A stretch of 64,000 nucleotides of DNA, from NCBI RefSeq assembly GCF_056712565.1, contig NZ_CM160072.1; one strand, 5' to 3'. The translations under genes were made by a program, and so were the position numbers. The notes under the pieces were generated by a model. That model saw nothing but the letters and a program-made list of their open reading frames with translations, ran no database searches and was not told where the DNA came from. Positions 29,036 through 32,701 of the stretch are shown here, in pieces; position 1 is the first letter of the stretch; every line of letters begins with the position of its first letter.

Positions 29036-30268
29036 ATGTCGTCATTTGATTACCTGAAAACTGCCATCAAGCAACAGGGCTGCACTCTACAGCAGGTAGC
29101 TGATGCCAGCGGTATGACCAAAGGGTATTTAAGCCAGTTACTGAATGCCAAAATTAAAAGCCCCAGCGCACAAAAGCTGGAGGCATTGCACCGTTATTTG
29201 GGACTTGAATTTCCCCGGCAGAAGAAAACGATCGGTGTCGTATTCGGTAAGTTTTACCCGCTGCATACTGGACATATCTACCTTATCCAGCGCGCCTGTA
29301 GCCAGGTTGACGAGCTGCATATCATTATGGGTTTTGACGATACCCGCGACCGCGCATTGTTCGAAGACAGCGCCATGTCGCAGCAGCCAACCGTGCCGGA
29401 TCGTCTGCGCTGGTTATTGCAGACCTTTAAGTATCAAAAAAATATCCGCATTCATGCTTTTAACGAAGAGGGCATGGAACCGTATCCACACGGCTGGGAT
29501 GTGTGGAGCAACGGCATCAAAAAGTTTATGGCCGAAAAAGGCATTCAGCCGGACCTGATCTACACCTCGGAAGAAGCCGATGCGCCGCAGTATATGGAAC
29601 ATCTGGGGATCGAGACGGTGCTGGTCGATCCGAAGCGTACCTTTATGAGTATCAGCGGTGCGCAGATCCGCGAAAACCCGTTCCGCTACTGGGAATATAT
29701 TCCTACGGAAGTGAAGCCATTCTTTGTGCGTACCGTGGCGATCCTCGGTGGTGAATCGAGCGGTAAATCCACCCTGGTAAACAAACTTGCCAATATCTTC
29801 AACACTACCAGTGCGTGGGAATATGGTCGTGATTATGTCTTTTCGCACCTCGGTGGCGATGAGATCGCGTTGCAGTATTCCGACTACGATAAAATCGCGC
29901 TGGGACATGCGCAATATATTGATTTTGCAGTGAAATATGCCAATAAAGTGGCGTTTATCGACACCGATTTTGTCACTACCCAGGCGTTCTGCAAAAAGTA
30001 CGAAGGGCGTGAGCATCCGTTCGTGCAGGCGTTGATTGATGAGTACCGTTTCGATCTGGTGATCCTGCTGGAGAACAACACGCCGTGGGTGGCGGATGGT
30101 TTACGCAGCCTCGGCAGTTCGGTGGATCGCAAAGAGTTCCAGAACTTGCTGGTGGAGATGCTGGAAGAGAACAATATCGAATTCGTGCGGGTTGAAGAGG
30201 ACGATTACGACAGCCGTTTCCTGCGCTGCGTGGAGCTGGTGCGGGAGATGATGGGGGAGCAAAGATAA
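29036..30268 (+). CDS. nadR: Trifunctional NAD biosynthesis regulator/NMN adenylyltransferase/ribosylnicotinamide kinase
   Basis: 410-aa ORF; N-terminal HTH, (H)xGH nucleotidyltransferase motif GKFYPLHTGH, Walker A GGESSGKST. Confidence 0.95.
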   Translation: MSSFDYLKTAIKQQGCTLQQVADASGMTKGYLSQLLNAKIKSPSAQKLEALHRYLGLEFPRQKKTIGVVFGKFYPLHTGHIYLIQRACSQVDELHIIMGFDDTRDRALFEDSAMSQQPTVPDRLRWLLQTFKYQKNIRIHAFNEEGMEPYPHGWDVWSNGIKKFMAEKGIQPDLIYTSEEADAPQYMEHLGIETVLVDPKRTFMSISGAQIRENPFRYWEYIPTEVKPFFVRTVAILGGESSGKSTLVNKLANIFNTTSAWEYGRDYVFSHLGGDEIALQYSDYDKIALGHAQYIDFAVKYANKVAFIDTDFVTTQAFCKKYEGREHPFVQALIDEYRFDLVILLENNTPWVADGLRSLGSSVDRKEFQNLLVEMLEENNIEFVRVEEDDYDSRFLRCVELVREMMGEQR

Positions 30269-30310
30269 TCATCTTTATAAGATGTTGAGTGGGATTACTG
30301 ATTCAAAAGT

Positions 30311-30343
30311 GTACTTAGTACTCCATTTCGGTGTACAATGTAC
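30311..30343 (+). promoter_or_regulatory. Paired GTAC-N3-GTAC palindromes upstream of the toxin gene (candidate antitoxin operator)
   Basis: gtacttagtac (30311-30321) and gtacaatgtac (30333-30343), 22 bp centre to centre, between a TTGAGT -35-like hexamer (30285-30290) and the GGAGGGGG RBS; the second contains TACAAT. Confidence 0.5.
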
Positions 30344-30359
30344 CTGCCAGGGAGGGGGA

Positions 30360-30692
30360 ATGGGTAAGGCGATAATATTTATAGAGACGCCAATGTTTAC
30401 GCGTCAGATCAAGCAGATTGCAACCGATGATGAATTAAAGGAATTACAAAAAGAACTCATCGGAACTCCCGATAAAGGTGATCTCATTCAGCAGACTGGT
30501 GGATTGCGTAAAGTCCGAATGGCTGCGGGTTCACAGGGAAAAAGTGGCAGTGTCAGAATAATTTACTTTCTGGCGACGGAAGAGATTATTTATTTGATTA
30601 TGGCCTATCCGAAAAATGCCAAAGATAGTCTGACAGATACGGAAAAAGCTCAACTAAAGAAGTTGACGAAACTGCTCAAAGGCGAGATATAA
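30360..30692 (+). CDS. RelE/ParE-superfamily toxin, HigB-2/Gp49-like
   Basis: 110-aa product MGKAIIFIETPMF...; core GDLIQQTGGLRKVRMA...GKSGSVRIIYFL...YLIMAYPKNAKDSLTDTEK resembles HigB-2-type toxins as I recall them; strong RBS ggaggggg; stop 1 nt from antitoxin start. ORF-track frame 30282..30692 is an upstream extension. Confidence 0.75.
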   Translation: MGKAIIFIETPMFTRQIKQIATDDELKELQKELIGTPDKGDLIQQTGGLRKVRMAAGSQGKSGSVRIIYFLATEEIIYLIMAYPKNAKDSLTDTEKAQLKKLTKLLKGEI

Positions 30693-30693
30693 A

Positions 30694-30978
30694 ATGAGTT
30701 TTTTTGATGAGTTGAAAACCTCTCTGGAAGAGGCTGTCGAGATTAAACAAGGTTTAAAAGAACCTGCACGGGTGACCCGCTACGAAATTGCGGATGTTAA
30801 AGCTATTCGTGAGCAACTCAACGTTTCTCAAAGTGAGATGGCAAAAGCTCTGGGAACCAGTGTGGATACCATTAAAAGCTGGGAATCGAAGCGAAGAAAT
30901 CCTACGGGATTGGCTGCAAAAGTACTTGCCACAATTAAAGAAAATCCTGCCTTTTTCCGGGAACTTGCTTCCCATTAA
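30694..30978 (+). CDS. XRE-family HTH antitoxin, HigA-2-like
   Basis: 94-aa product; HTH IREQLNVSQSEMAKALGTSVDTIKSWESKRRNP; toxin-first order typical of HigBA modules. Confidence 0.75.
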   Translation: MSFFDELKTSLEEAVEIKQGLKEPARVTRYEIADVKAIREQLNVSQSEMAKALGTSVDTIKSWESKRRNPTGLAAKVLATIKENPAFFRELASH

Positions 30979-30991
30979 TCATTTAACTAAT

Positions 30992-31022
30992 ACCGGATGC
31001 GATGCTGGTGCGCCGCATCCGG
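30992..31022. repeat. REP-like palindrome between the antitoxin gene and the convergent ettA
   Basis: accggatgcgatgctggtgcgccgcatccggc: GCCGGATGCG/CGCATCCGGC stems; may act as a bidirectional terminator. Confidence 0.55.
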
Positions 31023-31033
31023 CATTTTACGCA

Positions 31034-32701
31034 TTACTTCGCAATACGCTTGTACTTGATACGCTTCGGCTCCAGCGCGTCTGCGCCCAGCGTGCGTTTC
31101 TTGTACTCTTCGTACTCGGTAAAGTTACCTTCGAAGAACTCAACTTTACCTTCATCCTGGTAATCCAGAATGTGGGTGGCGATACGGTCGAGGAACCAAC
31201 GGTCGTGCGAGATAACCATCGCGCAGCCCGGGAACTCCAGCAGGGCGTTTTCCAGTGCGCGCAGGGTTTCGATATCCAGGTCGTTGGTTGGTTCGTCGAG
31301 CAGCAGCATGTTGCCGCCAACCTGCAGCAGCTTCGCCAGATGCAGACGACCGCGCTCACCGCCGGAGAGTTCGCCAACGCGTTTACCCTGATCAACCCCT
31401 TTAAAGTTAAAGCGGCCAACGTAGGCGCGGCTTGGCATCTCGGTGTTGCCGATCTTCATGATATCCAGCCCGCCGGAAACTTCTTCCCAAACGGTTTTGC
31501 TGTTATCCATTGAGTCACGGAACTGATCAACCGACGCCAGTTTCACCGTTTCACCCAAAGTGATGGTGCCGCTGTCCGGCTGTTCCTGACCAGAGATCAT
31601 ACGGAACAGCGTCGATTTACCCGCACCGTTCGGACCGATGATCCCGACGATCGCTCCTTTCGGGATCGAGAAGCTCAGGGAGTCAATCAGCAGACGATCA
31701 CCATAGGATTTACGCAGGTTGCTGACTTCCAGCACTTTATCGCCCAGACGCGGTCCAGGTGGAATAAACAGTTCGTTGGTTTCGTTACGTTTCTGATATT
31801 CGGTGCTGTTGAGTTCTTCAAAGCGCGCCAGACGTGCTTTACCTTTTGACTGACGGCCTTTAGTTCCCTGACGTACCCACTCCAGCTCTTTCTCGATCGA
31901 CTTACGACGCGCCGCTTCTTGTGAAGCTTCCTGCGCCAGACGCTGATCTTTCTGCTCCAGCCAGGAGGAGTAGTTACCTTCCCACGGAATACCTTCACCG
32001 CGGTCAAGTTCGAGGATCCAGCCCGCAACGTTATCGAGGAAGTAACGGTCGTGGGTAATCGCCACCACGGTGCCTTCGAAGTCGTGCAGGAAGCGTTCCA
32101 GCCACGCTACGGATTCCGCATCCAGGTGGTTGGTCGGTTCGTCGAGCAGCAGCATGTCTGGTTTTTCCAGCAGCAGGCGGCACAACGCCACGCGACGACG
32201 CTCACCACCGGAAAGGTTAGCGATTTTCGCGTCCCAGTCCGGCAGACGCAGCGCATCCGCCGCACGCTCCAGCTGAACGTTCAGGTTGTGACCGTCGTGA
32301 GCCTGAATGATCTCTTCCAGACGGCCTTGTTCAGCGGCCAGCTTGTCAAAATCGGCATCCGGATCGGCATACAGCGCATACACTTCATCCAGGCGTTTCA
32401 GGGCGTTAACCACTTCAGAAACCGCTTCTTCAATGGACTCACGAACGGTGTGTTCCGGGTTCAGCTGCGGTTCCTGCGGCAGATAACCAATCTTGATGTC
32501 TGGCTGCGGACGTGCTTCACCTTCGATGTCTTTATCAATGCCCGCCATAATGCGCAGCAGGGTGGACTTACCCGCGCCGTTCAGACCCAGGACACCAATT
32601 TTTGCCCCAGGGAAGAAACTCAGAGAGATGTTTTTCAAAATATGACGTTTCGGCGGAACAACTTTGCCGACACGATGCATGGTATAAACGAATTGAGCCA
32701 C
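31034..32701 (-). CDS. ettA: Energy-dependent translational throttle ABC-F ATPase
   Basis: 555-aa ORF MAQFVYTMHRVGKVVPPKRHILKNISLSF...; two ABC cassettes (Walker A GLNGAGKST and GPNGAGKST, LSGGE signatures). Confidence 0.95.
   Translation of the reverse strand: MAQFVYTMHRVGKVVPPKRHILKNISLSFFPGAKIGVLGLNGAGKSTLLRIMAGIDKDIEGEARPQPDIKIGYLPQEPQLNPEHTVRESIEEAVSEVVNALKRLDEVYALYADPDADFDKLAAEQGRLEEIIQAHDGHNLNVQLERAADALRLPDWDAKIANLSGGERRRVALCRLLLEKPDMLLLDEPTNHLDAESVAWLERFLHDFEGTVVAITHDRYFLDNVAGWILELDRGEGIPWEGNYSSWLEQKDQRLAQEASQEAARRKSIEKELEWVRQGTKGRQSKGKARLARFEELNSTEYQKRNETNELFIPPGPRLGDKVLEVSNLRKSYGDRLLIDSLSFSIPKGAIVGIIGPNGAGKSTLFRMISGQEQPDSGTITLGETVKLASVDQFRDSMDNSKTVWEEVSGGLDIMKIGNTEMPSRAYVGRFNFKGVDQGKRVGELSGGERGRLHLAKLLQVGGNMLLLDEPTNDLDIETLRALENALLEFPGCAMVISHDRWFLDRIATHILDYQDEGKVEFFEGNFTEYEEYKKRTLGADALEPKRIKYKRIAK

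Follow-up and report, generated by a model that had tools for sequence, protein, structure and literature searches.

A probable HigB-2/HigA-2-type toxin-antitoxin cassette in the nadR-ettA spacer of Escherichia coli and its remnant in K-12

We found that the spacer between nadR and ettA on an Escherichia coli chromosome very probably carries a type II toxin-antitoxin operon of the HigB-2/HigA-2 kind, made up of a PF06296 "RelE" toxin and a NadS/YiaG-like XRE antitoxin. The cassette lies within a 64,000-nucleotide stretch of this chromosome, which we call the window, in the gene order serB-radA-nadR-[two small genes]-ettA(-)-slt. Open reading frames and RefSeq annotation place nadR on its left (29036-30268, + strand) and ettA on its right (31034-32701, - strand). 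The cassette is already known: RefSeq annotates it, a 2020 study lists it at this site, and for its family both the structures and the mechanism have been worked out.

The toxin gene (30360-30692, + strand; 110 amino acids; RefSeq WP_000513550.1) belongs to the PF06296 RelE/HigB-2 family and the antitoxin gene (30694-30978, + strand; 94 amino acids; RefSeq WP_000007436.1) to the NadS family, NF041265. In the raw sequence the toxin stop codon TAA (30690-30692) is followed by a single A (30693) and the antitoxin ATG (30694), giving TAA-A-ATG. A sequence-only reading of this DNA had proposed two tightly coupled small genes, 1 nt apart and with the toxin first, and both the order and the spacing were borne out by the open reading frame list and the raw sequence. 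The span that it gave, 30285-31022, does hold a real cassette, but the start of that span takes in the promoter/operator region and its end takes in most of a REP hairpin. Directly 3' of the nadR stop codon is a short AT-rich inverted repeat, CATCTT-TAT-AAGATG (30270-30284), which is too weak for a convincing terminator, so that transcription of nadR may run on into the cassette.

The + strand open reading frame that contains the toxin spans 30282-30692, and its longest version would encode 136 amino acids from ATG 30282. We rejected this version as the toxin, because the starts of the homologues match 30360 and the extension is unconserved. Thirty homologues align with the toxin from residue 1 onward, M1 is invariant, and there is no conservation at the protein level upstream of ATG 30360. 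The true start is almost certainly ATG 30360, which lies downstream of GGGAGGGGGA; a Shine-Dalgarno-like GGGAGGG can be read directly from the sequence at 30350-30356 (+ strand), and RefSeq annotates the same 333-bp version.

We then compared the toxin with protein families and solved structures. In Pfam it matched PF06296 "RelE" over residues 13-106 (i-Evalue 5.9e-10, 39.8 bits), whereas its match to PF05973 (Gp49) over residues 43-105 was weak (i-Evalue 1.3e-3, 19.2 bits) and well below that to PF06296. PF06296 is also the assignment precomputed for close homologues of the toxin, a minority of which carry both PF06296 and PF05973. By these profile matches PF05973 is a related family and PF06296 the better one, so that of the expected Pfam identity the RelE/HigB-2 part stood, PF06296 being the family that holds HigB-2, and the Gp49/PF05973 part corresponds to the weaker match. 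There was no match to the Pfam profiles PF05016 (ParE) or PF05015 (the Rts1 HigB family). The nearest solved structure is Vibrio cholerae HigB-2 (phmmer E 8e-17 over residues 6-102; 5ja8/8a0x). Alanine substitution has shown that Arg51, Arg64, Tyr82 and Lys84 are needed for the activity of V. cholerae HigB-2 (PMC5416850). In the phmmer alignment these residues correspond to R53, R66, Y83 and K85 of the E. coli toxin, and all four are invariant in 30 toxin family members from many genera. By sequence comparison and modelling, the toxin thus shares with V. cholerae HigB-2 both the RelE fold and the four residues on which the ribosome-dependent mRNA endonuclease activity of HigB-2 depends.

Weak matches of the toxin to CRISPR ring-nuclease/CARF models were also seen (NCBIfam Crn1, E 0.004; PADLOC CARF, E 0.0025-0.005; PDB SSO2081, E 0.14), and these are probably noise. 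The CARF-RelE ribosome-bound effector Cami1 appeared in the Foldseek search with the toxin at E about 0.06-0.15.

The antitoxin matched the NCBIfam model NF041265 "NadS" over residues 1-94 of 94 with 182.6 bits against a cut-off of 60; its second NCBIfam match was the YiaG model NF007481 (1.6e-12). It also matched Pfam HTH_3 (6e-10), and its nearest solved relative was HigA-2 (E 2e-6, residues 33-91). No sequence similarity was detectable between its N terminus and that of HigA-2. To model the pair we used AlphaFold2 on a paired alignment, from 30 loci, of the toxin, a Gly/Ser linker and the antitoxin. The fusion was modelled with a pLDDT of 82 and a pTM of 0.73. The best Foldseek match of its toxin part was antitoxin-bound HigB2 (5jaa_D; TM 0.87, rmsd 1.8 Å), and ParE structures were found only at E > 0.05 with 10-18% identity. 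The antitoxin HTH matched the HigA2 C-terminal domain (5j9i) with TM 0.77-0.84 and rmsd 1.0-1.5 Å. The proposal of a HigB-2-like toxin agrees with both the phmmer and the Foldseek matches, and that of an XRE-HTH, HigA-2-like antitoxin was likewise upheld by the HTH_3 and HigA-2 matches and by Foldseek TM values of 0.81-0.84.

In the fusion model, antitoxin residues 1-32 form a helix (3-18) and then a strand (26-32) with a pLDDT of 90-95. When the antitoxin was modelled alone, the same residues had a pLDDT of 46-63 and the strand was absent; the whole model was less confident, the HTH included. The antitoxin N terminus is thus predicted to form its helix and strand only with the toxin present, which agrees with folding upon binding but is no proof of it, and part of the contrast in pLDDT may be a general effect of the less confident antitoxin-alone model. 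HigA2 folds on HigB2 as a helix and then a β-strand (PMC5416850). Sequence and modelling together point to an antitoxin that consists of an N-terminal segment of ~32 residues and a HigA-2-like, dimerising C-terminal XRE HTH.

Upstream of the toxin gene are two operator-like palindromes on the + strand, GTGTACTTAGTAC (GTAC-N3-GTAC; 30309-30321) and GTGTACAATGTAC (30331-30343). These GTGTAC-N3-GTAC palindromes form a direct repeat, 22 bp start to start. The motif GTGTACNNNGTAC occurs in the 64-kb window only at these two sites, against 0.01 occurrences expected. We surveyed the 100 bp 5' of the toxin start in 41 related cassettes from other genera, DNA that is otherwise unrelated, and found GTAC-N3-GTAC in 37 of them. 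Because the motif recurs in such unrelated genomic contexts, the two palindromes are probably the operator. A candidate -10 hexamer, TACAAT, can be placed at 30334-30339, within the second palindrome. A consensus promoter scan called no promoter at the operator region, and both of its matches were inside the toxin gene and at chance level. In V. cholerae, the higBA2 operator TGTACGC-N5-GCGTACA overlaps the -10 element (PMC11006873). Of the four residues with which HigA-2 contacts bases, R68, E71 and N72 are replaced by D58, K61 and S62 in the E. coli antitoxin and the fourth (R67) is kept. These changes would fit a related but different operator and, because three of the four contacts differ, our operator assignment draws only on the conservation of the palindromes.

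Three of the related loci, from an Enterobacter MAG (L014), Lelliottia (L018) and Pseudenterobacter (L048), are without GTAC-N3-GTAC. They have a different upstream sequence in common and a longer toxin-antitoxin gap, of 17-81 nt, and this subgroup may be under different regulation.

Between the convergent antitoxin and ettA genes lies a palindrome (30989-31026, no strand assigned), as the sequence-only reading had noticed. Its arms, AATACCGGATGCG at 30989-31001 and CGCATCCGGCATT at 31014-31026, are 13 nt each with 92% complementarity, and the hairpin has a folding energy of -21.6 kcal/mol (z = -3.7). Since the core GCCGCATCCGGCA occurs eight times in the window against 0.17 expected, this is a genuine REP-type element. 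The right arm is common to the K-12 REP beside ettA.

We next determined how the cassette is distributed by searching 5,426 complete E. coli genomes with a 765-bp query region. Some part of the region was present in 4,962 genomes, and at least 80% of it in 673. The toxin gene was found in 672 genomes, always chromosomal, in single copy and at least 95% identical, and the HTH half of the antitoxin in 729. Thus the module is strain variable, as had been proposed, and about 1 in 8 E. coli carry the toxin, UTI89, NC101, LF82 and APEC O2:K1:H5 among them. The whole cassette was present in at least 670 of the 672 toxin carriers; toxin without antitoxin is at most rare in E. coli. About 57 genomes, strain 700462 among them, had a full-length orphan antitoxin whose protein sequence is identical and whose local operator has been deleted. 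About 4,200 genomes had a fragment alone, of the K-12 type where examined. Among the matches listed, the toxin open reading frame was intact in 25 of 25 toxin-positive genomes, at 98-100% identity. The sole "plasmid" match to the toxin at 99% or more in PLSDB, NZ_CP134663.1, is a 4.9-Mb E. coli record and evidently a chromosome filed as a plasmid. RelE-domain toxins were reported absent from E. coli phylogroups A, B1 and C in a survey (PMC10790755).

Between diverged toxin-positive lineages, synonymous changes number 5 in the toxin gene and 2 in the antitoxin gene, and nonsynonymous changes 1-3 and 0, respectively, all tiny counts; the operators are unchanged. These counts, small as they are, suggest purifying selection between the diverged cassette alleles. 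The 3' end of nadR (29660-30268) differs by 5-5.6% from that of two toxin-positive lineages (L062 and L063). In the same comparison, the neighbouring 3' end of ettA and the cassette each differ by ~2%. The divergence at the nadR 3' end exceeds what is usual for a core gene of E. coli and may reflect recombination at the junction.

The sequence-only reading had supposed that K-12 has no gene between nadR and ettA. It was right that the toxin is absent, but the site is not empty: in K-12 W3110, RefSeq annotates a 168-bp "nadS" gene (55 amino acids) there. By alignment, nadS combines the final ~27 bp of the toxin gene with the ribosome-binding region and codons 1-38 of the antitoxin gene, after which the sequence is REP derived. 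The K-12 NadS protein (L001:2531-2698, corresponding to 30694-30807 of the window) consists of antitoxin residues 1-38 with five substitutions and a 17-residue tail read from the REP. The predicted toxin-binding helix and strand are kept and the DNA-binding domain is absent. The alignment thus showed a scar of the cassette in K-12 rather than the same genes. We rejected the idea that K-12 has an empty insertion site, since retention of the toxin 3' end together with the antitoxin 5' part is explicable only by deletion. The left deletion junction is identical in K-12, strain 700462 and strain B19429. This points to a single deletion that took almost the whole toxin gene together with the promoter and the operators, with the HTH half of the antitoxin lost later.

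In E. coli B19429 (L061:1500-3145), genes for a DUF1471 protein, an SRPBCC protein and an SDR oxidoreductase follow the antitoxin stub, where K-12 has ettA, and ettA was not seen within the 3.1 kb of sequence at the nadR site. Because these three other genes follow the stub, the nadR-ettA site is a hotspot of variable content.

To find relatives beyond E. coli, we scanned one genome per species and obtained 57 loci, from Serratia, Enterobacter, Pantoea, Xenorhabdus, Photorhabdus, Halomonas/Vreelandella, Thioalkalivibrio and others. The antitoxin lay directly after the toxin in all 56 loci that allowed the check (L058 is cut off by the end of its contig), and in most measurable loci the two genes were separated by a 1-nt gap or overlapped by 1-14 nt. 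The closest relatives share 80-82% amino acid identity and were found on small plasmids (4-7 kb) of Yersinia ruckeri, Citrobacter, Pectobacterium, Hafnia, Shigella boydii and Klebsiella; one such small-plasmid relative is annotated "Toxin HigB-2." Neither nadR nor ettA was beside the cassette in any of the 57 loci, where we found only ABC-ATPase paralogues at 25-30% identity. Thus, the name "NadS" reflects adjacency in E. coli only.

The toxin was frameshifted, split or 5' truncated in 8 of the 57 loci, and the antitoxin was intact in 7 of these 8. No locus of the 57 had an intact toxin beside a broken antitoxin. This asymmetric decay, in which the toxin is lost and the antitoxin kept, is as expected for a really harmful toxin. 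The broken-toxin loci (L047, L049, L051, L052, L053, L055, L056 and L057) are from Xenorhabdus, Halomonas/Vreelandella, Thioalkalivibrio and a Pseudomonadaceae MAG. The toxin is split by an insert of ~1.7 kb in L055 and of ~270 bp in L056, and in L047 the antitoxin also has a stop codon.

We also searched a phage collection and the PADLOC defence models. The phage collection gave only 7 distant matches, below 60% identity, and we rejected the idea that the cassette here is prophage cargo. PADLOC gave only noise-level CARF and HTH matches, and the cassette was not classed as a known defence system.

We considered whether the module might serve mainly to abort phage infection, and not for addiction or to stabilise a DNA segment. 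A link to phage defence has been made for many type II modules with RelE/ParE-superfamily toxins (PMC11980606), and the weak CARF/ring-nuclease matches of the toxin and the appearance of Cami1 in Foldseek would fit such a role. However, the PADLOC models gave no meaningful match, the neighbours are housekeeping genes rather than a defence island, and stabilisation is the simpler role for a family whose closest relatives are on tiny plasmids. We regard an anti-phage main role as unlikely. Less likely still is that the pair survives here, too, only in domesticated or decaying form, with a toxin that is dead or unexpressed and an antitoxin that regulates other genes. Loss of the toxin from most E. 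coli at no evident cost would be consistent with such decay, as would the retention of an identical full-length orphan antitoxin in about 57 genomes despite the deleted local operator. Against this, the toxin has kept all four catalytic residues, which do not vary across the family, none of the 25 toxin-positive genomes among the matches listed has a broken toxin, the changes between lineages are mostly synonymous with the operators conserved, and the operator motif is nowhere else in the 64-kb window.

The label "parE-3" would make the toxin a ParE-type gyrase poison and not an mRNA endonuclease. The pair was filed as parE-3/yiaG-2 in the ParE_toxin superfamily (Bustamante & Vidal 2020, PMC7232551), and RelE and ParE have one fold in common. 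However, it was PF06296 and not PF05016 that the toxin matched, among solved structures the mRNase HigB-2 lies closest, with its RelE-like R/R/Y/K site conserved, and ParE structures were reached by Foldseek only at E > 0.05 and 10-18% identity. Thus, a gyrase poison is barely credible, and we retain a HigB-2/HigA-2-type operon as the best explanation.

If this operon works as its V. cholerae counterpart does, the toxin would enter the ribosomal A site and cut mRNA under translation. The antitoxin N terminus would fold onto the toxin as a helix and a β-strand and inactivate it, and the antitoxin HTH dimer would bind the two GTGTAC-N3-GTAC palindromes overlapping the promoter, so that the operon represses itself. 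The two genes would be translationally coupled through TAA-A-ATG. For toxicity, neutralisation, mRNA cleavage and operator binding we rely on homology, at about 32-36% identity to V. cholerae HigB-2. The cassette would have resided in the nadR-ettA spacer of E. coli for a long time and would descend from a mobile family, of which the nearest members are carried by 4-7 kb Enterobacterales plasmids. A single deletion would have taken away almost the whole toxin along with the promoter and the operators, and the orphan antitoxin of about 57 of the 5,426 genomes would be what it left. REP sequence would then have replaced the HTH half in most lineages, K-12 among them, giving the 55-amino-acid "NadS" stub.

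K-12 NadS is what is left of a HigA-2-like antitoxin, and apart from adjacency nothing evident ties it to nadR. It was reported to be translated in BW25113 by PIRT-Seq and was discussed there alongside nadR and NAD metabolism (PMC12350097). A HigA2 peptide, residues 3-22, suffices to neutralise HigB2 in V. cholerae (PMC5416850). Residues 1-38, with the helix and strand predicted to bind the toxin, persist in the stub along with the ribosome-binding region of the antitoxin, and PIRT-Seq reports translation of the stub. We considered that this 55-amino-acid peptide might still work as an anti-addiction peptide against the 80%-identical HigB-2-like toxins of small Enterobacterales plasmids. We offer this as a speculation that is rather unlikely to be correct. 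If true, it would explain why the fragment has been retained in thousands of genomes and its apparent "co-conservation" with nadR. By family, from sequence and modelling, the toxin should be a HigB-2-type mRNase, which would make the published "ParE" label wrong. GTAC-N3-GTAC is a conserved and directly testable operator candidate for the whole family of NadS-type antitoxins. The gain for the field from the cassette itself is little, and our additions are modest: the family label, NadS as a stump and the operator motif.

A toxin-antitoxin pair at this site was reported as TA30, "parE-3/yiaG-2," in the nadR-ettA spacer of NRG857c and CFT073 and as absent from K-12 and HS (Bustamante & Vidal 2020, PMC7232551). 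By position, with the sequences not compared, TA30 should be the cassette studied here. In that report K-12 is simply without the genes, whereas we found a remnant in K-12; the published ParE label misfits the Pfam and structural evidence. We found no functional study of the E. coli cassette in literature searches on the protein accessions, "nadR-ettA" and "NadS family," and two E. coli toxin-antitoxin surveys (PMC10790755 among them) do not treat the locus individually. More generally, HigB-2 has been placed in PF06296, relE-yiaG modules have been described and the YiaG HTH has been likened to HigA2 (Gerdes 2025, PMC11980606). The cassette resembles these relE-yiaG modules in having a PF06296 toxin 5' of a YiaG-like HTH protein. 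However, the toxins of that subfamily have extended disordered N termini, and the E. coli toxin is a plain 110 amino acids.

The HigB-2-like cassettes of small plasmids have the same gene pair at 80-82% amino acid identity, with GTAC-N3-GTAC upstream in the small-contig loci. Post-segregational killing is their obvious role, whereas the E. coli copy is chromosomal and single copy. HigB/HigA of Proteus vulgaris Rts1 (PF05015) is alike in its toxin-first order and in its RelE-superfamily mRNase, but it belongs to another Pfam family and its antitoxin is fully folded, without a disordered neutralising arm (PMC5416850). The nearest characterised system is V. cholerae HigB-2/HigA-2 (VCA0468/VCA0469; 5JAA, 5JA8, 5J9I and 8A0X). 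It has in common with the E. coli pair the toxin-first order, the PF06296 family, a 110-amino-acid toxin and the R/R/Y/K active site. Both antitoxins have an N-terminal segment, for which a neutralising role is predicted here, and a C-terminal XRE HTH dimer. Like the V. cholerae operator, the candidate operator in E. coli is palindromic, contains TGTAC and would overlap the promoter. The two systems differ in that the E. coli toxin is only about 32-36% and the HTH about 33% identical to the V. cholerae proteins, the antitoxin N terminus is not alignable with that of HigA-2 and is about 10 residues shorter, and three of the four base contacts have changed. The candidate operator in E. coli consists of two GTAC-N3-GTAC sites 22 bp apart, whereas that of V. 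cholerae is a single TGTACGC-N5-GCGTACA. Finally, the E. coli cassette occupies a spacer of the core genome, and the V. cholerae pair is in a superintegron cassette.
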